A stretch of DNA of 64,000 bases from Schmidtea polychroa (Eukaryota): contig CM097885.1 of assembly GCA_044892525.1 (NCBI GenBank), forward strand, positions 32,614,001 to 32,678,000, read 5' to 3'. This document shows, one piece after another, positions 3,125-50,434 of the stretch (positions are counted from its first letter, which is position 1; each line of letters begins with the position of its first letter). Under the pieces are notes generated by a model. The model saw nothing but the letters and a program-made list of their open reading frames with translations, had not been told where the DNA came from and searched no databases. The position numbers and the translations under genes are program-made.

Positions 3125-6100
3125 GTTAATATTTTGATATTATTTTTGTTATAGTTTAAACATTGAATTTTTTCATCTATTAATGAGTTAATACTTGAAT
3201 ATAAATTTTTTCGACATATTAATTTTCTTTCACTGAATCTATTAATTGATTGTTTTCAATTTCTTTGGAACATTTATCTAATTATCTATTTTCCCATTCG
3301 AAAACAAATTAGTTTTTTATATTTATCTTGATATAAATATTTGTAAATGTAAAAGAAGTTAGCATTTTAAAATTTTGTGGACAGAAGTTGTTTTATTTTT
3401 ATGATTATTATATTTATTTCAAGTAAATTATTTTTTATAATTATTATAATAAATAATAAAAATAATAAACGATTTAAACGATATTTATCCAATACATTTA
3501 CTTTTAATATATGATAAAATTATTATTTTGTTTCATTTTGAGTTAAATTATTTAAAACACTTGAAAAATGATCTACAAAAAATTTGTGTTAAATAAATTA
3601 AAAAATAAATTTCTTTAATTTGAAAATAAATAGAGATAATTGAAATTGAAAATAGAAAGGTTAAAAGAATAAAGTTTTTACTGATATAATATTATATTTT
3701 TGAGACAATTTACATTAGCGCATGCAATTATATTTTACCTCTATTGTTCTCAATTTTATTGAAGGATATTGGGTTATATTGGGTTTATTTCAATATAAAC
3801 TGTATAATTTTTTTATTCATTATTCAGTGTTAATTGTATTGAATAAAAATAATATTATAATCTAGAATTTTCGTAATTATTATTAGTTCAATATTAAAAT
3901 TTTAAAACCATAATTGAAATGTTTATTTGAAAATCTGCGTTGTATTTCACTTTATTAAAACACAGTAATTTATTAATTTGGTGGTTTATAAAATAATTTT
4001 GTTATAATAATTATAAATGTGAAGAATTCATCATATTAATTATGAAATGTATGATTTGTACAATTTACACAATCAGAATATTATTCAATAAGTGTTTTCT
4101 CAAATATTGTATAATATAATTTTGTATTATATAAATATTGTATTATATAATTTGTATTTTTCTATATATTTAATTGATTTATATAAACTTATGTTTTAGT
4201 AAATATATCAAGTACATTATAAAACGAACAACATATATAGGTTTTTACATTCGTAAGATATAGATTATTTGCCATATGGTTTAATATGTCAATGAACCCC
4301 AACACAACATTTATTGATCATGTGCGAAAATCAATGATAAGTGCTGAATACCAATTTTATGAAATGAACAATATTAATTTTTACACTACACAAAAGTAAT
4401 ACATTTGAAACTACCAATAAAATTTGACAGTCGAAACACATTATAAACGTATTGTTACAAAAAATATACCTTGATTAAATAAAATCTTTAAATAAAATAG
4501 ATTTGCTTTTTGTACTCAAGTTAATATTTGAAATGAAAACAATATTTTGTTGGTATACCATGAGAATAATATATTTTATTAGTTTTGATAATTGTTAGAT
4601 ATTATTAATTCTAAAGATCATTCATTTGACTCCATTAAATGTAATACACCAAAGATTAAGTCATCAGATTTTTAATATTCTACTATATTAGCCATAAGTT
4701 GCCCACAATAAATGGGAATTAAGGGTTTTCAATATATCCTCAGTTTTTATTCCTTAATTTTATAGAAATTAATGTGAGATCCTTATTTCAATATAGTTTT
4801 TTCAGGAAACATGGTATAAAATATGTAGAAAATTGATTTCCTTACTATGACATTGATGTACAAAAAATGATTTCTGGAAAAATTACATTTTGCTAGACTA
4901 CAAGAACACAAGTTACGGTATCCTTCAAATATATTATTTTTATACGCCCGTTTGTATCACCGATATTAAAATATGTGTTATCTAAAACAAACAGGAACCA
5001 GAAGCGTCATTTTAACTCTGCACTCAAAGTACTTAATGACAACATTTGTCGTTGTACTCGATTTGTACTTACAAGTACAGGGCGTTAAATAAAAATTTTG
5101 TAATTAAAATTAATATTTATTAATAGTTATGATTAATTAAGTTATTTCAGATTTATTTAAACGCATTATTTAAATATCAATTTTAAATATGAAATTTTTA
5201 CTATTTTGTCATTTGTAAAGTTATAATATTTTGTAATTTGACAGTATTTTAAAGTAATGTATATATAATATATGATATTTTTATATAAAAGTTCATCTTA
5301 TGCTGCCACAGGCTTCTCTTTTAAAAAAAGTCCTAATCCTAATATATATGAACATATATTATTTAAGAATGGTTAAACTTTTAAATTACGAATAAGAAGC
5401 CATTATCAAATTCAAATTGCATTAAAACCAATCTGTTTGGTGAACAGTATAATTTAGAAAGAATCTCGTGTATTCACAAAGACTGTTCTAAAAATTAAAA
5501 AATGCAACAGAAAACGCAAGACTGAACCAAAAGAGGACACAATAATGAATGAAATCTAAAGTAACAATAATTAAATAGAATTCAAAAAAATCAACGGCTT
5601 TCAAAATCAGAAAAAACAGATCAATACACCAGTTTTAGCACTCTTAAGAGCTTAAACATAAAATCTGCAAAATCGAAATATTTAATATATATTTTCAAAC
5701 TTGAAGATTCAACAATTAATTCAATAAATTAGGAACCTTTTAAATAAAATCAATATAGATCAATTTGCACATGGATGTAAATTTATTAAAAATGGCTTAG
5801 ATATGGGTTTGTGCAGTTGGGCTATCCACCATAAAGAAATAAATTGAGAAATAAATGCTACATATCTGTGTTGTAGATATTAAAGAATTTGGCTCCACTA
5901 AATATATTATTTCTATGTGAGTCTAAGGACTTTTAAGCCTTACCACGTATAACAAAAATAATTCTTATTCGTGATAAATTAATTATGACTTATTTAATTT
6001 TTGGATCATCAAAGAATTTGAAATGTTCATGAAAGGATATAATTAATTTTTGTTTACTATAAAATCTATATTATTATATTTTTTTAAAATCATTAATGAC

Positions 6101-9001: not shown

Positions 9002-11736
9002 GTGAGTCTTCTTTTTATTACTCAATAATGTTTTTAATTTTTATTATGTTTAAAATTTGTATTTAACCTTTAAATACTTTCTCTGCACGCAACTACTATT
9101 TAAAATTTATATTTTCGCAATATTGTAATTTACTCTAATTTAAGAAGTTTGTTCTTTCATGAGTGAAAAAATGCATAAGTTATCTTATCAAATTTTCTTT
9201 TCATTATTTTTACATGAATATGCATTTAACTCATACTAACGCCGCTGATATGAACTATTACATTAATTAATTAGTTCAAATGGATTACAATAGGTTGCAT
9301 CTAAGAACGCCGTGCAGAAAATATGAGTGATCTCGTGGCTCGGAAACATCGGTAAACTTGTAAGCCGTCAGTAGTGTGTTAATTTATTTACAAAAGTGGT
9401 ATCGAACTATGATTTATAAAGATTTTATGTATTTACAAAATTAATTAAAATTAAAAAAATATTCGAATTATGTATTAAACTTGTATTAAATAAATTCAAA
9501 ATAATTTAATTCACTGACATCCATAGAAACCCGTTTATTAGAATCATTTATTGTAGTTATATTTTACAAAATTCTATATAAGGATTTGAACTTTGCAGAG
9601 ATGTTGATGTTCGTCATGTCAAACCGCACTTATGACGACTCAGCAACCATAACTAATCTTCTTTTTCATAGTTAATTTACTTTAGTCAAATGTTAGCGCA
9701 TTTTTTTATAATAATTATACTTTGGATTAAAAAAATATTTAATTTCTTTATGAAAAATGTTTGTTGCTTTATTTTAGATGTGAACCAGTAAAACTTGAAG
9801 ATAACTATTTTATAATAAAACTTTTGTATTTTTGTTTTTAATAGTGTGTGTATGTAAATTTATTGGTTGTTATTGTAAATAAACATATTTAATTAACATC
9901 ATATATCATTTATTCAGTGATTCATTTGTATGGGCATTTACCTATGCATATGATTAGCATTTTATATGTCAGGTGTTATCAATAAAAAAATATTATTCAT
10001 TAGAATTTGTTGATTCCCAGACTTTTGATCGACTAGTGCAGGAGTGGGTACACGTGAGGTCAATGAAAGCAGGGTGATGGTTTTTGTATATTATAAATAG
10101 TTAATTATTGTTAATAAAGCAACATTTTCTAAACATTCTTGTAAGGTTCTATTTTCTTTTTTGTATATTTGTTTTTTTGATGTTTTCTGAGGTCATGTAA
10201 ACGAAATATTTGATAAATTTATTTCCTTAAAATGAAACAAAATAAAATATAATTAATAAAAAAAGATTCTGTGAAGTTCTGAAATAATATAAAACTGATT
10301 TCTATTTTTTATGTGATAAGCTGTATTTTTCCACCATGGGAATAGTCAATCTTTATAAATAAACATGACATTATTGATTAATTAAAACATAAAATAATAA
10401 AAAGGAGTCGTTGTTGGTTGATTTTTGATGACTCCAGCTACGGCTACAAATTCAAGATCCTAGTGATAAAAACATAGTGAAATTTTATCAAACTACAAGC
10501 ACGCGTTTGTTAATGAACTTTTTATTATTACATACATTGAATGATAAAGAGTTGAAATTTTATTCGAAGATTTAAGATCATAAATTATTCAAAGGGAAGA
10601 GAAATAGATCAAAATTAATGTAAAAATAATAAAAGAAATAAGTGGCAACTACAATCAAGCAAAAAATATTACTATGCACGATTTATTGAAGAATTTTCTG
10701 AAGGATAAAACGATTGAAACAATATGAAGAGTGAAGTTCCAACTAAGATATACATTGCGGTTTAAATGGCTTACTGTAATAATAAACTAAACTCAATAAA
10801 ATATTAATAATAATTGATTATTTTTCGACATTTAATTTTTAAACGATTTTGTGTAAGGTTTTTTGTTTTATCTATTTCTTATTTTAAGTATTTCAAAGAA
10901 GAAAAAGTTCAATAAATATTAATTAAGAATACTATTTTTTTGATATTTAAATTAGTTAACTCTAAAGCATAAGTTTGTGTGAAATAAGGTCAAAATATCT
11001 AATTTTAGAAAATTGTCGATGAAAAATTTGCATAATTTACTTTTTGTCATTTTAACAGATCGATGACTCAGAATTCCCATGTGAAATAAAAATTTTCATC
11101 AGTTTTTTGGAAAATGATGATTTTATAAATTTGATTTATTATTTTTCAGAACTTGACTGTTATAGTAAAAATATTTTCAATCCCATGAGTAAACTTTTTA
11201 TACATTCCTAACCTATTTTATGATAAATAAATCACTTGTGATATATTAGTTACAGTGAAATTCGTATTTATCACGTGCATAAAATAACAATTTTCCAATT
11301 ATTTCCCCAAAAAACAATATCTTTTTACAATATTATTAAAACAAACACAATAAATTCGAGGAGTTTTTTAAGAGTTAAATATTGATATTTTTAGAAAAAC
11401 AGATTTCATTCTTCATTTATTTCATTCGCATCAACATACTAAATATATTATTTTAAATTTATAAAAATTTAACATTATACATTTAAAATATTAATTTGAA
11501 AATTCTATTTTAAAATATTTTATATTATATTAATTTTTTATTAATCTTTAAAGTTAATATTTAACTTTTTAATATATATTTATATGATGTACTGGATAAC
11601 CAACATGTTGATTTTTAAATATTTGGTTATTTTAGTACTTTTTGTGATTTATAATATTCGTGAATTATTTGGGGTTAAACAGTAGTTATGTTTATTAATG
11701 AGTTTTAATATTTTATTGAATTATTGTTTTGTATAG

Positions 11737-20805: not shown

Positions 20806-22277
20806 CGCGTTATTATACATTGAAATTACGATGTTCATCATTTGACTGACTTCAATATCGGTTTAGGCGTTCTACAACAGCGGTTCCCAGCCTATGGGTC
20901 GCGACCCCAACATTATATGCTGAAAATAATTTATTTGCGCAAGTCCATAGTTTCTTACTGTCTATATATAATATATTATAAGAACTTTTTTTAATTTCAC
21001 CACTGATTTCTTTTCCATTGTATATCTTAAAAAGCTTAATGACTATGAATCAGTAAATATATCGATGTAAATATATCAGTAAATATATCGATGTAAATAT
21101 ATCAGTAAATATATCGATATATATAGATAAATATATAGCGTGTAGGACTTACAGTTTAAAGTGAGTAACAAATCACTTAGCAGCCACGTATAAATATCTT
21201 GAATATATTATATAGTTTTGTAGTAGGCAAATAATAAAAAGATTTTCATATTTCACAATTTTTTTCGCTGTAGATATTTTTTAAATGAACTTGGCAACAA
21301 AAATTTACTCATTTTACCTTGAATACATTATTATGTATAACAAGGTATTTATGTATACCCCAATCACAGCCGGGCAGTAATTTACTATAAAAATACGAAG
21401 AAATTAATAATTAAATTTTTAGTTTAAAATATTGATAAAACAAAATAATAAATTGACATTTAATTTTTAATTTTAATTAGATATAATGTTGTTTACTTTG
21501 GTCAGACATTTGCGGAGATCAAAATTTCGCCGACTTTATTAATGACAATAAATATTTTGTTTGGCTTCTCAGAATTTTATTAAAAAGCATAAAAATTTTT
21601 TTAACACAGGTTAGTAAATAAGAATAATTTTTCTCAATAAAATTAATTTACAATATATACAATTTATATTTTTACCCTTAAAAAGGTTTTGAAATAAAAA
21701 AAACTCCATTTGTTAATATCTATTAAAATGTTAAACTTGAATCCATCCAATTTTTATAAAAAATCTAAATAGTTATCATTTCGTAATTCATAATTAAAAA
21801 TTATGAATTATGACTAATTTCATCCAAATTATTTTTCAATTATAAATGATTACTTGTTTTTAACTAATGCCATCATCTACATAGAGTTTCATTTAATAAT
21901 TTGATGTATGGCATCTGTTATTGAAATAGAAAAACAAGAGACAATATTTTAAGTATTACCCACAATTTCACGAATACAATAAGTTTTGTTTTCATTGAAT
22001 TTTTCTTAACATTACATAAATAGTAACCAAATGAGGTTTAAGTATTTAAATGTTAAGAATCACTTAGATTTATTTACCTTATTTTAATGTGTTTAATTAG
22101 TAAGCCAGATTAATTAAGAAAACTAATTCTTTACAAGTCATGTTAAAAATAGTTTCATTGTCGTTTTATTATTGTTTGACTATATATATTGTAGTTATTA
22201 CACATGAAACATTTGAATTATTAATTTCCCATTTTTGCATAAGTAGGGTATTGTGTGGACCCGGAAACAAAGACATA

Positions 22278-22590
22278 TGACGTCATCGATGACGTCACAA
22301 AGACATATGACGTCATACCCCCGGGGGAGGGGTTTTTTTTTTAATTTTTTTTTTTTAATTTTTTTTTTAAATTTTTTTTTTTTTTTTTAAATTTTTTTTT
22401 TAAAATTTATATTACGTTGCGGTTTTTTAAAATTTATATTACGTTGCGGTATTTTAAAATTTATATTACGTTGCGGTATTTTAAAAATATATTACGTTGC
22501 GGTATTTTGAAATTTTAATTATTAAATATATTACGTTGCGGTATTTTAAAATTTTAATTATTAAATATATTACGTTGCGGTATTTTAAAA
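22278..22590. repeat. Terminal motifs: 3x TGACGTCA and 6x TATTACGTTGCGGT (mirrored at ~32105-32391)
   Basis: TGACGTCA at 22278, 22290 and 22308; six TATTACGTTGCGGT copies over ~22409-22581. Confidence 0.9.
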
Positions 22591-22863
22591 ACTTATTTTG
22601 ATGGTTAAATAAAATAAAATTATTACACACAATACTCAGACAAAATATTCTGTTCCCCTATGGTCACACACACAATGTATAAAAATATTATTATTAATGT
22701 CCACACACGCAACAAGTTAGTGTTCTCATCGATATATTATTAATCTATATACTCCGAGTTTATCCGACAAAATATTCTGTCCCCCTATGGGATACTGCTA
22801 ACAAGGGTACTGGTCGCGCTCAACAACTCGCAAGGGTATTATTAAACAATGTAATAAAACATA

Positions 22864-22864
<1 letters not shown>

Positions 22865-22932
<68 letters not shown>

Positions 22933-23033
22933 CATTATTATTATTATTATTATTATCATTATTATTATTATTATTATTAATATTAATATTATTATTATTA
23001 TTATTATCATCATTATTATTATTATTATTATTA
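22865..23033. repeat. (ATT)n tract in the left arm (mirror (AAT)n at ~31655-31826)
   Basis: Seen directly; it produces the spurious poly-N and poly-I ORFs in the track. Confidence 0.95.
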
Positions 23034-23285
23034 TGGGTACTGCTCACAAAGGTAAATGTCACAAAGTTACTGTTAAAAAATATTCAAGACAAAACATTAA
23101 CAAAGAAATTATACTTTAAATATACACTAAAATTTATTAACACACTGGGTAAAGGTGATAAAGGTAACTAACAAAACTTTAACATATTATTATTACACAC
23201 AATGTATAAAAATTGTTCACAAAGTTACTGTTAAAAAATATTCAAGACAATATGACTAATACATTTATTAAATAATTTAAACACA

Positions 23286-26243
23286 TCATCGAAAATAATC
23301 ATGTCCAAAATAATTATCATCTGCTGGATCATGGAAATCATCTGTATCATCTGCTGAGATAGCTTCCGTTGAATCTATAAATATAACGGTGTCACCGCCC
23401 CTATAATGACCATATGCCAAACTTTGATTTTTATCCACCCAATTTCGCTTATCATCTCTACATGTCAAGGCTCTTTTATTATTTTTAATACTAAAAAGTT
23501 GGTGATTTTTTGACGTTATTCTAAACTGAGGGACTGTGTATATTTTATCATTTAAATAACAATCTAGATACGACTGATGTGTTAGTCCAGTATCTTTCAT
23601 ACTTATCCCCTTAGCCTTCATACTTTCCTCATCACCCATCAAACTGTAACATTTAGGTCTCAAGAACACCCAATCTTTATATAATAACCCTTTATTCTCG
23701 TCTTTGAATTTACCAATGACAGAATCAAGGTTCCTACTATATAAAGGATGATTTGGGTCATAATTCGAAGTATCTAATAATTGATCTCTAATCATCGCAG
23801 GTAAAAGAATGTCAAGACTACAATGTTTAATTTCCAAGAAGAAGGAATCTGTGTCTCCAGCAACGATATTAATTTCGCAGTTGAATTCGTCGCGATATTT
23901 TTGCAACTCTTCATACTGCAGCTGGTACATCCTGAGTTTGGATAAATCAAGTACGGTTTGACCAATGTAACTAGGTCTATTCAAACATACTATGTCCTTC
24001 CTCAATAAAACCGAAATCAAGTCATCATCGATTTTCGTGGATTTACGAAAAGTCGGTTTCGAACAGAATGTTAATAATCTCTGTGAAGAATTACACAGAC
24101 GTAAATTAATACGTTTTTTAAGATTTTCAACAGTCTTGCCGTAAAGACTGTTGTTTAATAATTTATAAAAATTTTTATCGAGTTTATTTGTCGACGCTGC
24201 TCGTAACGCCGTATTTGTGTTAATATAATTTTTGAAAATTTTATCTTGTTTAAATTTAATTGCTCTATGTGTTTTTGATATTTTAACACCTAATTTAATA
24301 AATATTTGTAGAAGCCTCCAATGAAGAACGTAGTTCCTCTTGGGGCTGTGTGTAAGCAACAGCTTCTCTATTTTCGAACCCGGTACACACATCTTTTCAG
24401 CGGCAACGGGAAGATCGTCCAGTTTGTCGTGAATTGACGTCGGTATTTCTAAATCCACTTCTATGGTATAACCATAATCAAGCAGATCTAAATCTACCGT
24501 TGTGCATTCAACAATTATATTATTTAATAAATTATCATCAGTAACCCATTCAAAGTCACTGCAAGGTAATGGTTGACTTAAAGCCCAACCGTATAAATTA
24601 TTTATATCTATGTAAAGCAAAGCGGTATCCGGGTCTGTTTTTACATAATGTTTATTTACAAAAGTTAGTCCGCCACGGATACCGCCCTCGAAAAAGTTAT
24701 ACATCTCCATATCGGTGAGGAGCTCAATTGGAGAGTTTAAAGTTAATAAGGCTGAATTCCAAGACATACCTGGAATCCCTAAGAAATTTAATGGCTCTAG
24801 TCGGTTATGAGCAATGGACTTAGCTCTAAATTGCTGGAAAAAATCGGCTAAAAGGAAAACATCAAGTTTTAAATAAACCATCATGTAATCGAAAAGTGAA
24901 GTACATGAAGTTTCAACCCAAATTCGCTGAGCTGTCTCATATTCAGCGGGAGTCACATCTTTCCAAATAGGAGGTAACTGATGAGTGTTATGCAAAACCT
25001 CTAATGAAGTTGCGGCATCATAAGGAAAAATTCCCTTTGCAGTTATTATTGTACCCTGAAATTCTGATTCGGTCAAGGGTAAAGATGATAAAGTTTTGAC
25101 AGCATTATTTAAAGACTCGCTGACAAATTGATAAGAGTCTATAAATTTAACAGTTAATGAGTCAATCCTAGCAAAAAGACTAAGGAATTTCTCGCTGGTT
25201 AAAGGAATACAACTAATATTCCATGAATGATATTTTGAAAGGCCAAATTTCAAGATATGATGCAGATCATAACCCTTTAAATTATGAAATACTACAGGAA
25301 GGGTATGTCTAATTTGCCTCGACAGATTACAAGTTGTACAAGCGGCACCAAGATATAGACCGGTAAAATGATCATGGTCCCTAACTGGACTAACTAAAGG
25401 CTTATTGCACAAATAACATGATGTGCTGTTTTCAAACATTAATTGTTGCTCATCTGTAATTATCATTTTCTTTTGATAATTTTTATAATAATAAGGAGTT
25501 ACAATATATTTCCCTATCATTTCAATTTCAGTAAGAAATTGATCGACACAATCTAAACCGGTGAACGACTTATAAATTTTTACGCCCGTGAAATTATTAA
25601 TAAAAAGCATACCGGCAGAAATAGGCAGATGACGTTGAAAGTAGCGAGTGTCTTTAGGTAAGATAGCCTCAAAGTCAGCGTAAATAACAAAGGGAGGAGT
25701 AACTGTTTTACTCCAATCAGTAAATTCTAAATATTTATTTTTAGGCAATGTGTACAAGGTAGTACCAAGCTGATTTTTATCGCAAAGACCCTTATGTCTA
25801 TTAAAAGCGTCATCATTCCTAAAACCGTTTAAACATCTAGGGCACCACTGACTACAAATCCTAACAGGAGTGATTGAACTATTCCTACAATTAAGAAATC
25901 TATTTAGGTCTGTGATTCCAAGATAATGATAATTATCATTCTTTTCAATTAATAATAAATTGATAGGTATGGCTCCTACTATCTTACTCCTATATATTAT
26001 ATCAATAAAGGGATGTTTCATAACTGCATCTTCATCGGAAATGTCAATCAAAGCCCTTTCGTTATAAGTAAGAACATTAATACTATAACCCGGATTTTGT
26101 TGTTCAAATTTACTTATATTTGATAGTTTCATCGGCATATCATTAGGATCAAATTTAATTTCAGAAAGATTGTAGGAATTAGGGCGATTTCTATATTGCC
26201 TATTTATACTATCATATTTAATAATTGACAAGAAACTATACAA
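23286..26243 (-). CDS. Protein-primed family B DNA polymerase, 5'-truncated copy
   Basis: Same sequence as the + copy. The frame is open to about 26437, but the N-terminal coding region was removed by an 822-bp deletion. Confidence 0.85.
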   Translation of the reverse strand: MYSFLSIIKYDSINRQYRNRPNSYNLSEIKFDPNDMPMKLSNISKFEQQNPGYSINVLTYNERALIDISDEDAVMKHPFIDIIYRSKIVGAIPINLLLIEKNDNYHYLGITDLNRFLNCRNSSITPVRICSQWCPRCLNGFRNDDAFNRHKGLCDKNQLGTTLYTLPKNKYLEFTDWSKTVTPPFVIYADFEAILPKDTRYFQRHLPISAGMLFINNFTGVKIYKSFTGLDCVDQFLTEIEMIGKYIVTPYYYKNYQKKMIITDEQQLMFENSTSCYLCNKPLVSPVRDHDHFTGLYLGAACTTCNLSRQIRHTLPVVFHNLKGYDLHHILKFGLSKYHSWNISCIPLTSEKFLSLFARIDSLTVKFIDSYQFVSESLNNAVKTLSSLPLTESEFQGTIITAKGIFPYDAATSLEVLHNTHQLPPIWKDVTPAEYETAQRIWVETSCTSLFDYMMVYLKLDVFLLADFFQQFRAKSIAHNRLEPLNFLGIPGMSWNSALLTLNSPIELLTDMEMYNFFEGGIRGGLTFVNKHYVKTDPDTALLYIDINNLYGWALSQPLPCSDFEWVTDDNLLNNIIVECTTVDLDLLDYGYTIEVDLEIPTSIHDKLDDLPVAAEKMCVPGSKIEKLLLTHSPKRNYVLHWRLLQIFIKLGVKISKTHRAIKFKQDKIFKNYINTNTALRAASTNKLDKNFYKLLNNSLYGKTVENLKKRINLRLCNSSQRLLTFCSKPTFRKSTKIDDDLISVLLRKDIVCLNRPSYIGQTVLDLSKLRMYQLQYEELQKYRDEFNCEINIVAGDTDSFFLEIKHCSLDILLPAMIRDQLLDTSNYDPNHPLYSRNLDSVIGKFKDENKGLLYKDWVFLRPKCYSLMGDEESMKAKGISMKDTGLTHQSYLDCYLNDKIYTVPQFRITSKNHQLFSIKNNKRALTCRDDKRNWVDKNQSLAYGHYRGGDTVIFIDSTEAISADDTDDFHDPADDNYFGHDYFR

Positions 26244-26418
26244 AAAGCAGAAGTGGTCATTATTAACTACATTAACGAGACAGCTTAAGTTTCTTAAAGA
26301 TTTTGGGGTTTCAATAAAACTTCTACCACTTAACCGACTTATTTCAGCAAATTTAGTCAGAACAAAGCTTATGTATTCTATTTTATTGATAGTCCAATTA
26401 CTACCTTTCTCATTTCCA

Positions 26419-27451
26419 ATAGGATGTAGGTGACACCGTTATATTTGTGACTATAATATCTTTCCATTATATCATCGCAGTCATTATGATATTGACTATT
26501 ACAAAAGTTTTGGTATTTCAAACCTATGAAAATATTTTTATCATAAAATGTTTAAAAAATAATAAGATAATAATCATTTTTAAAGTTTAAGATATTTTTC
26601 GTAAGATATTATTCAAAATTGACTTTTAAATAGTATCTTATAAAAAATAATATAAAATATATAATTTAATTCATTTTCATAAATAAATAAATAATTCATT
26701 TTCAAAAATAGATTTTATGTTTAATATATTATTATTTTATGTTTAATATATTATTTGTTAAATTTTATGTTTAAAAATATTATGTAATACTATTACATGT
26801 TCAGTGCATGCACAGTGCAAAGTAACAAAGCACTGAACATGTAATAGTATTACATAATATTTTTAAACATAAAATTTAACAAATAATATATTAAACATAA
26901 AATAATAATATATTAAACATAAAATCTATTTTTGAAAATGAATTATTTATTTATTTATGAAAATGAATTAAATTATATATTTTATATTATTTTTTATAAG
27001 ATACTATTTAAAAGTCAATTTTGAATAATATCTTACGAAAAATATCTTAAACTTTAAAAATGATTATTAGAAGATTTATTTATTTATGATGATTTTATAA
27101 AGAAGATTTATGAAATATGATGATTTTGAACATTATAATTAATAACTTTTATATATTATTTATGAAAATCTATTTTAGAAAATGAATTATTTATTTATGA
27201 AAATGAATTAAATTATATATTATTTTTTATAAGATACTATTTAAAAGTCAATTTTGAATAATATCTTACGAAAAATATCTTAAACTTTAAAAATGATTAT
27301 TATCTTATTATTTTTTAAACATTTTATGATAAAAATATTTTCATAGGTTTGAAATACCAAAACTTTTGTAATAGTCAATATCATAATGACTGCGATGATA
27401 TAATGGAAAGATATTATAGTCACAAATATAACGGTGTCACCTACATCCTAT
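26419..27451. repeat. Inner inverted repeat and central hairpin of the element
   Basis: 26419-26807 pairs with 26830-27451, where the right side carries an extra ~233 bp bounded by a direct repeat. The loop is 22 nt (26808-26829). Confidence 0.9.
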
Positions 27452-27453
27452 GA

Positions 27454-27573
27454 CCTAAATGTGAGGTTATTGAAGTTATAACGTATAAGGAATTTTATAA
27501 TAAGCATAGACTCCATCTCCAACAATTTAAACCTTCTAAGAAGTCTCTTTTCTATAGCTTATATGAATCGTTT

Positions 27574-27604
<31 letters not shown>

Positions 27605-28098
27605 TCAACAACAATAATAATAATATCAACAACACTAATAATAATATCAACAACACTAATAATAATATCAACACTAATAATATCAACAACAATAATAATA
27701 TCAACAATAATAATATCAACAATAATGATATAAACGAAATAACTAAACTAAAAGATCAAGTAAATAAATTAAATGATCAAATAAATAATCTAATTAATAT
27801 GAATAAAAGAAAAAATAATGAAAAAATCAATTCAATACCAAGTAAAAAATCTAAAGTTATTGAAATAATCAACATAAGTGATGATGATGAAATATTCAAC
27901 ATAAGTGATGATGAAATTGATAATAATAATAGTAGTAGTAATATTTATTATAATAATGGTAATAATAATAATATTAATCAAATAGGTTATGGTGTCGTAG
28001 ATGTCACCAGTGATTTAAATAATAATCATTATATTAAAAATGGACGTTTCGTCTTTAGATTTAAAAACGGTCTCTGTACCAGACATTTTAATAAATAA
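27454..28098 (+). CDS. Asn-rich ORF, probable frameshifted N-terminus of PolB
   Basis: Frame is open from 27454 (after TGA 27451) through the track ORF 27799..28098. Contains poly-N, a basic NLS-like patch and a QIGYG motif, and overlaps the PolB ORF by 59 nt. Confidence 0.5.
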
Positions 28099-31000
28099 AT
28101 TAAATTTATATGTAAATAAATTAAAATCATGTAAAATTCAATTTTGTCTAAAGGTGGAATTTATAAAAGATGATGAGTTACAATCTTTTGTAATCTCGAA
28201 TTCCGCCCGAGTTTGGAGCGATACATTCATTGACGAAGGTATTGCTCGTTTAAATGAAAAAATAATTAAAATTAATGAGAAAGGTAGTAATTGGACTATC
28301 AATAAAATAGAATACATAAGCTTTGTTCTGACTAAATTTGCTGAAATAAGTCGGTTAAGTGGTAGAAGTTTTATTGAAACCCCAAAATCTTTAAGAAACT
28401 TAAGCTGTCTCGTTAATGTAGTTAATAATGACCACTTCTGCTTTTTGTATAGTTTCTTGTCAATTATTAAATATGATAGTATAAATAGGCAATATAGAAA
28501 TCGCCCTAATTCCTACAATCTTTCTGAAATTAAATTTGATCCTAATGATATGCCGATGAAACTATCAAATATAAGTAAATTTGAACAACAAAATCCGGGT
28601 TATAGTATTAATGTTCTTACTTATAACGAAAGGGCTTTGATTGACATTTCCGATGAAGATGCAGTTATGAAACATCCCTTTATTGATATAATATATAGGA
28701 GTAAGATAGTAGGAGCCATACCTATCAATTTATTATTAATTGAAAAGAATGATAATTATCATTATCTTGGAATCACAGACCTAAATAGATTTCTTAATTG
28801 TAGGAATAGTTCAATCACTCCTGTTAGGATTTGTAGTCAGTGGTGCCCTAGATGTTTAAACGGTTTTAGGAATGATGACGCTTTTAATAGACATAAGGGT
28901 CTTTGCGATAAAAATCAGCTTGGTACTACCTTGTACACATTGCCTAAAAATAAATATTTAGAATTTACTGATTGGAGTAAAACAGTTACTCCTCCCTTTG
29001 TTATTTACGCTGACTTTGAGGCTATCTTACCTAAAGACACTCGCTACTTTCAACGTCATCTGCCTATTTCTGCCGGTATGCTTTTTATTAATAATTTCAC
29101 GGGCGTAAAAATTTATAAGTCGTTCACCGGTTTAGATTGTGTCGATCAATTTCTTACTGAAATTGAAATGATAGGGAAATATATTGTAACTCCTTATTAT
29201 TATAAAAATTATCAAAAGAAAATGATAATTACAGATGAGCAACAATTAATGTTTGAAAACAGCACATCATGTTATTTGTGCAATAAGCCTTTAGTTAGTC
29301 CAGTTAGGGACCATGATCATTTTACCGGTCTATATCTTGGTGCCGCTTGTACAACTTGTAATCTGTCGAGGCAAATTAGACATACCCTTCCTGTAGTATT
29401 TCATAATTTAAAGGGTTATGATCTGCATCATATCTTGAAATTTGGCCTTTCAAAATATCATTCATGGAATATTAGTTGTATTCCTTTAACCAGCGAGAAA
29501 TTCCTTAGTCTTTTTGCTAGGATTGACTCATTAACTGTTAAATTTATAGACTCTTATCAATTTGTCAGCGAGTCTTTAAATAATGCTGTCAAAACTTTAT
29601 CATCTTTACCCTTGACCGAATCAGAATTTCAGGGTACAATAATAACTGCAAAGGGAATTTTTCCTTATGATGCCGCAACTTCATTAGAGGTTTTGCATAA
29701 CACTCATCAGTTACCTCCTATTTGGAAAGATGTGACTCCCGCTGAATATGAGACAGCTCAGCGAATTTGGGTTGAAACTTCATGTACTTCACTTTTCGAT
29801 TACATGATGGTTTATTTAAAACTTGATGTTTTCCTTTTAGCCGATTTTTTCCAGCAATTTAGAGCTAAGTCCATTGCTCATAACCGACTAGAGCCATTAA
29901 ATTTCTTAGGGATTCCAGGTATGTCTTGGAATTCAGCCTTATTAACTTTAAACTCTCCAATTGAGCTCCTCACCGATATGGAGATGTATAACTTTTTCGA
30001 GGGCGGTATCCGTGGCGGACTAACTTTTGTAAATAAACATTATGTAAAAACAGACCCGGATACCGCTTTGCTTTACATAGATATAAATAATTTATACGGT
30101 TGGGCTTTAAGTCAACCATTACCTTGCAGTGACTTTGAATGGGTTACTGATGATAATTTATTAAATAATATAATTGTTGAATGCACAACGGTAGATTTAG
30201 ATCTGCTTGATTATGGTTATACCATAGAAGTGGATTTAGAAATACCGACGTCAATTCACGACAAACTGGACGATCTTCCCGTTGCCGCTGAAAAGATGTG
30301 TGTACCGGGTTCGAAAATAGAGAAGCTGTTGCTTACACACAGCCCCAAGAGGAACTACGTTCTTCATTGGAGGCTTCTACAAATATTTATTAAATTAGGT
30401 GTTAAAATATCAAAAACACATAGAGCAATTAAATTTAAACAAGATAAAATTTTCAAAAATTATATTAACACAAATACGGCGTTACGAGCAGCGTCGACAA
30501 ATAAACTCGATAAAAATTTTTATAAATTATTAAACAACAGTCTTTACGGCAAGACTGTTGAAAATCTTAAAAAACGTATTAATTTACGTCTGTGTAATTC
30601 TTCACAGAGATTATTAACATTCTGTTCGAAACCGACTTTTCGTAAATCCACGAAAATCGATGATGACTTGATTTCGGTTTTATTGAGGAAGGACATAGTA
30701 TGTTTGAATAGACCTAGTTACATTGGTCAAACCGTACTTGATTTATCCAAACTCAGGATGTACCAGCTGCAGTATGAAGAGTTGCAAAAATATCGCGACG
30801 AATTCAACTGCGAAATTAATATCGTTGCTGGAGACACAGATTCCTTCTTCTTGGAAATTAAACATTGTAGTCTTGACATTCTTTTACCTGCGATGATTAG
30901 AGATCAATTATTAGATACTTCGAATTATGACCCAAATCATCCTTTATATAGTAGGAACCTTGATTCTGTCATTGGTAAATTCAAAGACGAGAATAAAGGG

Positions 31001-31402
31001 TTATTATATAAAGATTGGGTGTTCTTGAGACCTAAATGTTACAGTTTGATGGGTGATGAGGAAAGTATGAAGGCTAAGGGGATAAGTATGAAAGATACTG
31101 GACTAACACATCAGTCGTATCTAGATTGTTATTTAAATGATAAAATATACACAGTCCCTCAGTTTAGAATAACGTCAAAAAATCACCAACTTTTTAGTAT
31201 TAAAAATAATAAAAGAGCCTTGACATGTAGAGATGATAAGCGAAATTGGGTGGATAAAAATCAAAGTTTGGCATATGGTCATTATAGGGGCGGTGACACC
31301 GTTATATTTATAGATTCAACGGAAGCTATCTCAGCAGATGATACAGATGATTTCCATGATCCAGCAGATGATAATTATTTTGGACATGATTATTTTCGAT
31401 GA
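28040..31402 (+). CDS. Protein-primed family B DNA polymerase (Polinton/adintovirus type) with an endonuclease-VII-like zinc insert
   Basis: Exo I YADFE, Exo II FHNLKGYD, Exo III YLKLDV; Pol A YIDINNLYG, Pol B KLLNNSLYGK, Pol C AGDTDS, then KCY and KAKG. Also CYLC..RDHDHFTG..GAAC..CN and the KGSNW N-terminal motif. Confidence 0.93.
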   Translation: MDVSSLDLKTVSVPDILINKLNLYVNKLKSCKIQFCLKVEFIKDDELQSFVISNSARVWSDTFIDEGIARLNEKIIKINEKGSNWTINKIEYISFVLTKFAEISRLSGRSFIETPKSLRNLSCLVNVVNNDHFCFLYSFLSIIKYDSINRQYRNRPNSYNLSEIKFDPNDMPMKLSNISKFEQQNPGYSINVLTYNERALIDISDEDAVMKHPFIDIIYRSKIVGAIPINLLLIEKNDNYHYLGITDLNRFLNCRNSSITPVRICSQWCPRCLNGFRNDDAFNRHKGLCDKNQLGTTLYTLPKNKYLEFTDWSKTVTPPFVIYADFEAILPKDTRYFQRHLPISAGMLFINNFTGVKIYKSFTGLDCVDQFLTEIEMIGKYIVTPYYYKNYQKKMIITDEQQLMFENSTSCYLCNKPLVSPVRDHDHFTGLYLGAACTTCNLSRQIRHTLPVVFHNLKGYDLHHILKFGLSKYHSWNISCIPLTSEKFLSLFARIDSLTVKFIDSYQFVSESLNNAVKTLSSLPLTESEFQGTIITAKGIFPYDAATSLEVLHNTHQLPPIWKDVTPAEYETAQRIWVETSCTSLFDYMMVYLKLDVFLLADFFQQFRAKSIAHNRLEPLNFLGIPGMSWNSALLTLNSPIELLTDMEMYNFFEGGIRGGLTFVNKHYVKTDPDTALLYIDINNLYGWALSQPLPCSDFEWVTDDNLLNNIIVECTTVDLDLLDYGYTIEVDLEIPTSIHDKLDDLPVAAEKMCVPGSKIEKLLLTHSPKRNYVLHWRLLQIFIKLGVKISKTHRAIKFKQDKIFKNYINTNTALRAASTNKLDKNFYKLLNNSLYGKTVENLKKRINLRLCNSSQRLLTFCSKPTFRKSTKIDDDLISVLLRKDIVCLNRPSYIGQTVLDLSKLRMYQLQYEELQKYRDEFNCEINIVAGDTDSFFLEIKHCSLDILLPAMIRDQLLDTSNYDPNHPLYSRNLDSVIGKFKDENKGLLYKDWVFLRPKCYSLMGDEESMKAKGISMKDTGLTHQSYLDCYLNDKIYTVPQFRITSKNHQLFSIKNNKRALTCRDDKRNWVDKNQSLAYGHYRGGDTVIFIDSTEAISADDTDDFHDPADDNYFGHDYFR

Positions 31403-31758
31403 TGTGTTTAAATTATTTAATAAATGTATTAGTCATATTGTCTTGAATATTTTTTAACAGTAACTTTGTGAACAATTTTTATACATTGTGTGTAATAATA
31501 ATATGTTAAAGTTTTGTTAGTTACCTTTATCACCTTTACCCAGTGTGTTAATAAATTTTAGTGTATATTTAAAGTATAATTTCTTTGTTAATGTTTTGTC
31601 TTGAATATTTTTTAACAGTAACTTTGTGACATTTACCTTTGTGAGCAGTACCCATAATAATAATAATAATAATAATAATGATGATAATAATAATAATAAT
31701 AATATTAATATTAATAATAATAATAATAATAATGATAATAATAATAATAATAATAATG

Positions 31759-31827
<69 letters not shown>

Positions 31828-32427
31828 TATGTTTTATTACATTGTTTAATAATACCCTTGCGAGTTGTTGAGCGCGACCAGTACCCTTGTTAGCAGTATC
31901 CCATAGGGGGACAGAATATTTTGTCGGATAAACTCGGAGTATATAGATTAATAATATATCGATGAGAACACTAACTTGTTGCGTGTGTGGACATTAATAA
32001 TAATATTTTTATACATTGTGTGTGTGACCATAGGGGAACAGAATATTTTGTCTGAGTATTGTGTGTAATAATTTTATTTTATTTAACCATCAAAATAAGT
32101 TTTTAAAATACCGCAACGTAATATATTTAATAATTAAAATTTTAAAATACCGCAACGTAATATATTTAATAATTAAAATTTCAAAATACCGCAACGTAAT
32201 ATATTTTTAAAATACCGCAACGTAATATAAATTTTAAAATACCGCAACGTAATATAAATTTTAAAAAACCGCAACGTAATATAAATTTTTTAAAAAAAAT
32301 TTTTAAAAAAAAAAATTTTAAAAAAAAAATTAAAAAGCCCCCCCGGGGGGGTATGACGTCATATGTCTTTGTGACGTCATCGATGACGTCATATGCCTTT
32401 GTTCCCGGGTCCACACAATACCCTACT
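28274..32427 (+). repeat. Right arm of the giant inverted repeat (pairs with 22242..26414)
   Basis: Junction read directly: 26401-26414 CTACCTTTCTCATT is the reverse complement of 28274-28287. Confidence 0.92.
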
Positions 32428-33666
32428 TGCATAGGATCTGGCCAATTAATCACAATGAATTATGAGTTTCTGCCCTCTGTAGATGTTTTTATGTAATATA
32501 ATTTGATTGTTTTTAATGTTCATCATAGGTTATTAATATATTATATCAAGTTGCGAATTTATTGTAACATTGATACATTAATAGGAATTTCCAGTATGAA
32601 TAAGTGAATTTCGTTACGTTTAATGTGGTATTTATATCTTTATTTATTGTTTATTTATTTTTAAAGTTTATATGTCCAATTATTGTTAAAGTTCAGTTAA
32701 AAATTAATGCAAATTATTAAAGAGTGAATTTTTTTCCATTTATTTTCACTGAGTCGGACAATTGTGTAATGAGCGCTTAAAATATTTATTCTTTAATTTA
32801 AACTTAGTTTCAATTTGGTAGCTCAAATACAAATAAATTGAATCAGTTTTCAATTATCAGCTTTAGTCTATCATTTTTCTGTGATTTCAAATAAGAATTG
32901 AACGGATTGTAATGAATATTTTTAGTTTACTCAAACCCCTATGGGTTCTGACAAACATTAAAAGATTGAATCTTTGATTTTAAAATTTGTCTTGATTTGT
33001 ATCTTGAGATTATAATATTATATATTTACAATTTATATGGACATTCTTTTTAATAGCATCATCTTCGTCTTTTCTTGAGAACATTATCCACAGCATTGCT
33101 ATACTGTAGCACTGCTTTTTTAACAGTCATAATTATCTGCCAATTTGCAATTTTATTTTATTTTAATTTTATGAAAACATTTGGATCATCTGTAATATGG
33201 AAATATTTTATGAAAGGAAGTATTACAGTTAAATTCTTTTTAATATATTTTAAAATTAATATAAATATATTATTGTCATATTATTTTTCATATATTTTGA
33301 TAAACATATCGTTATTAAAAGTGAATTATGAAAGTAACTCAGTGTTTGTCTACAATTAGTAACTTATTGATAGAATATTGAGTCACATTGGCGTATCAAA
33401 TGTTAAAGGGTTAAAAGGATGAAAGGTATTTTTAAAATGTATGTTGATGAATGTTGTAAAAATGGTTGTGGCGGGAACAGTTCGGGATCATTCTTTTTTA
33501 AATAGTTGATTTGATTGATAAATATGATAATATAGTTCATGATTAAATAACACATATTTTTATAAAATATTTCATAGGAAGAAAATTAGAGTTGATCCAA
33601 AGATATTTTATTGTTTTAATTTTCAACTTGTAAATCACATTTTGATATTTCGTTTATATTCATTAT

Positions 33667-49951: not shown

Positions 49952-50434
49952 ATGGAATCAACCGGCTACATTACAAAGAGACTCGAAAAATTCGTAGATT
50001 TAACACACAATTCGTTACAACGGCTGAATCGCAAAGCGGACCAGTTAATAAAAATCCAAGATGAGATGAGCTTGAATCCAAGACCGCAAGCTGAGGAAAT
50101 ATGTGTAATGATGAAAATAGCGACACCTAATGCAGAATTGACCACTAAAAGAGTTTATCAACTTCAAAATTTACGATTAGATAATGCCAAATTTAACATC
50201 AAATGGCAGGAGATAATGATAAAAATGGAAACGATCGAGGAAGAAATTAAAGAAGCAATCGAACATCAAGTTAAAGATTTTAGAAAATGCTTCATATGCA
50301 GAACCAATGAAATACGAGTAATGACGATTCCATGTGGTCATTTATGCTACTGCGAGAATTGCGCAGAGAAAATTAAACGATGCAACGTATGCGATACGAA
50401 TGTTAGAGAGAAAATTGTAATATACCTCCCATAA
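49952..50434 (+). CDS. Coiled-coil plus IAP-type C-terminal RING finger protein (putative E3 ligase)
   Basis: CFICRTNEIRVMTIPCGHLCYCENCAEKIKRCNVC...IYLP matches the IAP/MDM2-like terminal RING layout. No BIR domain. Confidence 0.8.
   Translation: MESTGYITKRLEKFVDLTHNSLQRLNRKADQLIKIQDEMSLNPRPQAEEICVMMKIATPNAELTTKRVYQLQNLRLDNAKFNIKWQEIMIKMETIEEEIKEAIEHQVKDFRKCFICRTNEIRVMTIPCGHLCYCENCAEKIKRCNVCDTNVREKIVIYLP

Follow-up and report, generated by a model that had tools for sequence, protein, structure and literature searches.

A palindromic Polinton copy in Schmidtea polychroa is probably a fold-back derivative of an ordinary multi-copy family

The closest described relatives of the element reported here are the Polintons (Mavericks), for which I follow the definition given in passages of PMC4196379 and PMC6431247. 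How these elements replicate is, in the relevant passage of PMC4196379, a model derived from sequence analysis. Outside the Polintons, snap-back or copy-back defective genomes and the palindromes of phi29 have one end inverted and duplicated by template switching and depend on a helper (excerpts of PMC13506859 and PMC2175359). In Galileo of Drosophila mojavensis, internal sequence beside one terminal repeat is duplicated in inverted orientation beside the other, and break repair using the other repeat has been proposed for these extended repeats; the same source states repeat expansion in Polintons as an earlier report, with three references including Jurka et al. 2007 (PMC3573991, in the sections dealing with these repeats). 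In the fold-back inversions of yeast and cancer, priming at a short natural inverted repeat near a break leads to an inverted duplication that is stabilised via repeats (part of PMC10622511). My literature search returned no description of whole-element fold-back Polintons, and a precedent in print is possible, given that Polinton repeat expansion has been reported. The nematode Polinton preprint makes no mention of 'palindrom', 'inversion' or 'rearrang', and the protist preprint, in the portion concerned with palindromes, describes short terminal ones only.

The window referred to throughout is the whole stretch of S. polychroa DNA that was analysed, 64,000 nucleotides in length. The element within it spans 10,186 bp (22242-32427) on contig C1 of a 781-Mb assembly and lies between two copies of a 6-bp TSD, TGCATA (Table 1). 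An earlier, sequence-only reading of the window had noticed this TSD and described the flanks as unrelated, and both observations stand, the 2-kb flanks having no similarity when compared with each other. The left flank occurs once in the assembly, save for one weak 73% match, and a search with it found no empty-site allele in the assembly.

The same reading took the insertion for a single inverted repeat about a 22-nt loop, which holds for the arms and the centre. Arms 22242-26414 and 28274-32427 are 99% identical, their inner 3403 bp contain no substitution in a global alignment, the remaining differences are one TAT unit and changes confined to the outer ~160 nt, and a perfect inner palindrome of 240 bp encloses the loop. 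It does not hold for the element as a whole, however: the loop centre (26818.5) is offset by 516 nt from the element centre (27334.5), the two halves about the loop measure 4566 and 5598 nt, and the left arm has no counterpart of an 822-nt segment of the right arm, with 4 filler nt in its place, nor of one 233-nt repeat unit.

The claim that both ends are the same PolB terminus needs a similar qualification. Both are indeed PolB-side Polinton ends, but the two PolB copies are unequal and neither is intact. In the right copy, the reading frame is interrupted by an early stop codon (27451-27453) and broken again near 28030; the window differs at 27453 from 20 of 20 relatives and at 28030 from 18 of 20, and in 15 of the 19 nearest relatives PolB is a single frame of ~1370 codons from stop to stop. 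Their polymerase motifs suggest a putative protein-primed family B polymerase. A Pfam search gave no PolB match, and the right copy contains an endonuclease-VII-like stretch slightly below the Pfam cut-off. The earlier observation that integrase, ATPase and capsid genes are missing was borne out by tblastn, which found no match in the element to the ATPase, integrase, two capsid-like and TBP-like proteins of an ordinary copy. The window element has neither the intact PolB nor the integrase of an autonomous Polinton.

Table 1. Features of the window element (window positions) and positions of the other palindromic elements (contig C1).
Feature	Position	Strand	Evidence or comment
Left TSD copy, 6 bp	22236..22241	+	flank comparison
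Left terminal inverted repeat	22242..23034	+	AG start, C/G/T tracts, 27- and 39-bp tandem repeats, TAT-tract end
Left PolB copy	23286..26414	-	5' end removed by 822-nt loss
Filler, 4 nt, at left-arm deletion junction	26415..26418	.	junction once in genome
Inverted parental sequence from upstream of PolB	26419..26716	-	minus one 233-nt repeat unit
Parental segment, 125 nt, from ~0.9 kb further in	26712..26836	+	inverted, via 5-nt microhomology; exact match L021, L028
Native 7-bp stem closing the 125-nt segment	26801-26807 / 26830-26836		
Loop, 22 nt, at fold-back point	26808..26829	+	native to ordinary copies
Self-copied arm after fold-back	26830..26925	+	junction 26836/26837 once in genome
Repeat unit, 233 nt, right arm only	27070..27302	+	87-nt direct repeats 26983-27069, 27216-27302
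5' part of PolB frame, right arm only	27452..28273	+	carries private breaks
Right PolB copy	27454..31402	+	two frames, 27454-28098 and 28019-31402
Right terminal inverted repeat	31654..32427	-	
Right TSD copy, 6 bp	32428..32433	+	flank comparison
Element B	C1:223807129-223820304		13.2 kb; one switch inside capsid-like gene; 301-nt spacer, 5-nt overlap
Element C	C1:160675183-160682193		7.0 kb; tight hairpin, 20-nt filler, 1.7-kb deletion in one arm
Element D	C1:169319389-169323919		4.5 kb; one switch, 1.8-kb spacer
Element E	C1:79514219-79525934		11.7 kb; switch near AAT tract; 8 mismatches in 4979 aligned nt
Far/far element, sister family	C1:4159947-4177111		4.4-kb arms, 99.5%; TSD

Relatives of the element were taken as the best 19 of 11059 candidates by score, and the sample is therefore biased to young, close and complete copies. 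All 19 are full-length Polintons of ~15 kb with capsid-like, integrase and ATPase frames beyond the loop, and both ends and a 6-bp TSD are visible in 17 of them (two ends fell outside the stretches examined). The terminal inverted repeats of this parent family begin with AG and measure ~0.8 kb; at the far ends of ordinary copies, the match to the left terminal inverted repeat of the window element stops past the TAT tract. Because positions 22591-22863 hold no fixed difference between PolB-end and far-end repeats, the two kinds are indistinguishable by comparison of this stretch. Copy L024 matches PF04665 (A32-like packaging ATPase, E 2e-7) and PF00665 (rve integrase, E 2e-7, slightly below the curated cut-off). 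A 407-aa frame resembles jelly-roll clusters of the Atlas (score 0.98; PF21738 is present in 15-24% of their members), which is a lead only to its being capsid-like, and the same frame had no match among PDB sequences. The frame after it is putatively protease-like, as judged by its motifs. In 16 of the 19 copies, PolB differs from that of the window by only 0-4 substitutions per 3129 bp, so the family must be young; the window arms themselves carry no private substitution in these 3129 bp and are identical to copy L006. A 26-mer beside the loop has 243 matches genome-wide, and nested copies of the family exist (L075-L077). The parent family fits the Polinton definition as worded in those passages of PMC4196379 and PMC6431247.

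The anatomy of the centre was resolved by exact matches to an ordinary copy, L021. Window positions 26921-27278 equal L021 from position 9643 onward, and 26712-26836 equal L021 8708-8832, ending in the native stem around the loop; 26830-26925 are the reverse complement of L021 8708-8803, and 26568-26716 that of L021 9643-9791. The same 5-nt overlap is found at both outer junctions of the centre. Of the 810 nt that precede PolB in the parent, the element keeps a 99-nt match inside the repeat unit and nothing else. With up to two mismatches allowed, a search of the 781-Mb assembly gave one site for the fold-back junction and one for the deletion junction. The window element thus bears the hallmark of a snap-back genome, one end inverted and duplicated with a template-switch junction.

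These matches are read most simply as the track of one strand. Heading inward from the PolB end, it changed template through the 5 nt of microhomology, took up 125 nt of the parent in the opposite sense, turned back on itself at the 7-bp stem-loop native to that segment and then copied itself outward. The half with the integrase, ATPase, capsid-like and protease-like genes was lost, together with the 810-nt region before PolB. The second junction is an exact mirror of the first, so the left arm was presumably the template and complete when copied, and would have dropped its 822 and 233 nt later. With high probability, the element is a dead product of fold-back that derives from an ordinary Polinton of a young, multi-copy family. 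A template-switch (snap-back) origin had been one of two proposals in the sequence-only reading, and it gains from this junction anatomy as well as from the four independent sister elements described below.

The second proposal fared differently. On that view the element is a distinct ~5.6-kb replicon, protein-primed at one end and closed by a hairpin at the other, in the form of its unfolded dimer, and hence a new satellite class, which I find barely credible. The centre does fold as a long hairpin topped by a small, branched loop, and the polymerase is the sole gene kept, but the genome contains the centre junction only once, full-length copies have the loop as a native, internal feature, every sister palindrome has another centre, and both PolB copies are broken with the region before PolB gone. 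The relatives, the best 19 of 11059 candidates by score, all run on into full Polintons and not into the same hairpin centre, the very outcome by which the sequence-only reading had said this proposal would fall, and no flipped loop orientation was seen in the one copy available to examine. Since the relatives are ordinary Polintons, the loop and stem are native, and the junction is found once in the genome, the replicon or satellite reading fails. As far as its sequence can tell, the window element is not a new replicon; whichever route produced it, it lacks the means to produce a polymerase of its own and has remained a single copy.

Two family members inserted back to back or nested, and then trimmed by deletion, are another conceivable source of the palindrome. 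The family is so young that the absence of PolB differences between the arms does not prove self-copying, and nested copies are known in it. Nevertheless, there is a single common TSD, the centre junction is mirrored exactly, and the 455-nt inner terminal repeat is identical in both arms whereas its length differs in 17 of 17 ordinary copies, all of which makes two insertions most unlikely. Because of this identity in a repeat that is unequal within every one of those ordinary pairs, the arms are copies of each other, in keeping with fold-back.

The window element is not alone. Marker pattern lists covered C1 (76 and 96 exact matches) and the start of C2; eight other inverted pairs of PolB-side or centre markers were examined, four of which are PolB/PolB elements of 4.5-13.2 kb with perfect TSDs (B-E). 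Their switch points differ from one another, and for B, C and D no second full-length match to the junction was among the 40 candidates scored for each. One arm of element B is missing 1.35 kb. Element C repeats the pattern of the window, a tight hairpin with a deletion in one arm. Of the far-end pairs, four inward-facing and one back-to-back were examined, and one proved to be a far/far element with a TSD. As the PolB/PolB elements and the far/far element have their own switch points, fold-back seems to have started from both ends and at many positions. At least five PolB/PolB elements on C1, set against roughly at least 100 family loci, correspond to a few percent, the denominator being approximate. 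Judging by these junctions, fold-back is a recurring by-product, with several independent events in this genome.

Several other loci were considered as fold-back elements and set aside. C1:9.106-9.121 Mb is a larger chromosomal inverted duplication in which no termini were found, C1:49.45-49.46 Mb is a decayed copy of nearly full length in which ~0.5 kb of PolB end lies beside the far repeat, and C1:259.76-259.78 Mb and 263.66-263.69 Mb are separate elements. Among the far-end pairs, one is a nested insertion and the back-to-back pair is two separate elements. Two further far-end loci have one junction in common and look like segmental duplication; they are not counted as spread, because their flanks are shared as well and termini are absent. 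A different palindrome, of ~15 kb, lies at C1:96934-112066.

Long inverted repeats are prone to assembly error, and the palindrome could in principle be an artefact of sequencing or assembly, made from fold-back reads or a misjoined repeat. The contigs of four public runs gave no piece shown to span the centre: with positions 26250-26872 compared to Logan contigs of these runs, none of the 32 pieces displayed of 412 lay over either junction, contigs of this kind dropping rare variants. Fold-back reads, however, lead back into the flank from which they came, whereas this element has unrelated flanks and a TSD. The arms differ by two deletions, filler and private substitutions, the junction sequences are absent elsewhere, so that there is nothing to misjoin, and five further cases each have their own TSD. 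An artefact is, on this evidence, very unlikely. Of the words of 21300-22330, a fraction of 1.00 is present in each of four runs of one study and 0.68-0.69 in two runs of another; these may be the source of the assembly itself and do not count as support here.

Fold-back may have taken place after integration, when a break in a full-length copy was repaired within the chromosome, and I would put the chances of this at about even. The new strand would have been recaptured by the copy's other terminal repeat, as in the model put forward for the extended repeats of Galileo, and the old TSD would survive. Between the two ends of each of B, C, D and E, the terminal repeats show differences like those in ordinary copies, and the arms of the window element differ in the outer ~160 nt and otherwise by one TAT unit. 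In element C, 1737 bp of inner arm contain no substitution, while several indels and substitutions separate the terminal repeats; in element D, 13 substitutions in 488 nt of terminal repeat compare with 1 in 389 nt inside. Because terminal repeats differ while inner arms match, and because no tested junction recurs, the data lean to repair in place, which seems to fit the terminal-repeat differences at least as well as does an origin on a free genome. The case is weakened by the nature of the repeats, which are rich in homopolymers and tandem repeats and may diverge after insertion or by assembly error. The lack of private substitutions in the 3129 bp of PolB in the window arms speaks against repair in an aged copy.

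The free-genome route is a variant within the fold-back explanation and is not exclusive of it. In that case, the Polinton's protein-primed polymerase would have folded back on a free linear genome, the hairpin would have been replicated to a palindromic duplex with two PolB-side ends, and the integrase of a helper copy would have integrated this duplex in trans; I regard this as possible but somewhat improbable. It would account for the perfect TSD and unrearranged flanks in five of five PolB/PolB cases and for the identical inner terminal repeat in the two arms of the window element, and it has a parallel in phage phi29, whose terminal-protein-primed replication yields short palindromic DNAs (a passage of PMC2175359, citing Esteban et al. 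1997). However, self-copying to the end predicts identical terminal repeats, and those of B, C, D and E differ. Nor was any tested junction found twice (window, B, C and D), and the two loci with a common far-end junction also share flanks, making segmental duplication likely. The wider suggestion that these elements are fossil snap-back defective genomes, in which the polymerase folds back from either end and a few percent of copies are palindromes inserted in trans, is accordingly offered as a tentative one.

What carries the interest is recurrence; taken singly, the window element is a dead accident. A genome with several independent palindromic copies, each with exact switch points, gives a way to test the Polinton replication model. 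If the free-genome origin is true, they would be the defective-interfering genomes of a Polinton, and if the snap-back reading is true, a trace left in vivo by the strand-displacement replication of an animal-type Polinton. If instead they are chromosomal, terminal repeats would contain fold-back repair and turn a 0.8-kb repeat into multi-kilobase arms.

Set beside the known systems, the window element is Polinton-like in its 6-bp TSD, its terminal inverted repeats of ~0.8 kb and its PolB gene, and its parent in the rve integrase, the A32-like ATPase and the capsid-like and protease-like frames; the window copy departs from a Polinton in having two PolB-side ends, arms of 4.2 kb, no other genes and no intact PolB. 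It shares the inverted and duplicated end with snap-back genomes, but is fixed in a host chromosome between TSDs and may have formed there in place. The resemblance to Galileo lies in inverted duplication beside a terminal repeat, although the longest repeats given in that part of the Galileo source are ~1.26 kb, whereas in the window element the duplication takes in almost the entire length on either side of a true fold-back centre. Finally, the likeness to the fold-back inversions of yeast and cancer extends to priming at a short natural inverted repeat, with the difference that here the event stays inside one element, bounded by its terminal repeats.

The paired ends of the palindromic elements carry more substitutions than those of ordinary Polintons of the parent family. 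Over the first 66 nt of the termini (22242-22307 and 32362-32427 in the window element, plus copies B to E, the four other palindromic elements with two PolB ends on contig CM097885.1, hereafter C1), I counted 10 clean substitutions in five pairs, as against only four in 16 pairs from ordinary copies, a set that is biased to young copies and leaves out L016 because of an indel (Fisher p = 2e-4). The window element also lacks a parental region corresponding to oriented positions 8833-9642 of L021, an ordinary parent-family copy. Judged from its sequence, this region contains putative CCAAT- and TATA-like boxes as well as short segments bounded by GT..AG.

Another, longer palindrome on C1 (Table) has no match of at least 200 nt to the window-family copy L007/L027. 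Elsewhere, the stretches L068 (C1:8.84-8.85 Mb) and L061/L062 involve a fragment of a deleted Polinton, ~3.46 kb in length. It occurs as head-to-tail repeats, and at 9.11 Mb an inverted duplication of larger extent contains it as well. Within the window, the RING-finger frame, which sits in a more GC-rich stretch beginning at ~48 kb, is unconnected with the fold-back Polinton.

Table. Locations of the additional palindrome and of the TBP-like and RING-finger frames
Feature	Location	Strand	Details
~15-kb palindrome	C1:96934-112066 (L098-L100)		arms ~7.4 kb, spacer ~0.9 kb
TBP-like frame, parent family	L024:2719-3183	-	154 aa, PF00352, E 5e-15
TBP-like frame, sister family	L074:5865-6329	+	154 aa, PF00352, E 3e-15
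Frame with C-terminal RING finger	window 49952-50434	+	160 aa, PF13920, E 3e-12

Genome-wide, the far-end 26-mer has 2092 matches, compared with 392 for the PolB 3' 25-mer and 243 for the centre 26-mer. This surplus arises, at least in part, because the far-half genes are common to sister families, related Polintons whose termini differ from those of the parent family and whose PolB protein is 59-60% identical. One sister-family element (L090 with L078, C1:11.74-11.75 Mb) retains both termini, a TSD, and capsid-like and integrase frames; no match to PolB was found within the part of it that was searched.

In this sister-family copy (L090) the integrase frame is 351 aa long and includes a chromodomain. 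The parent-family integrase frame, which starts near position 4500, ends after 153-178 aa in all 19 copies scored (L021-L039), and an intron or a slippery tract may lie behind its shortness. In both the parent family and the sister family, the ATPase gene and the TBP-like frame are arranged head to head.
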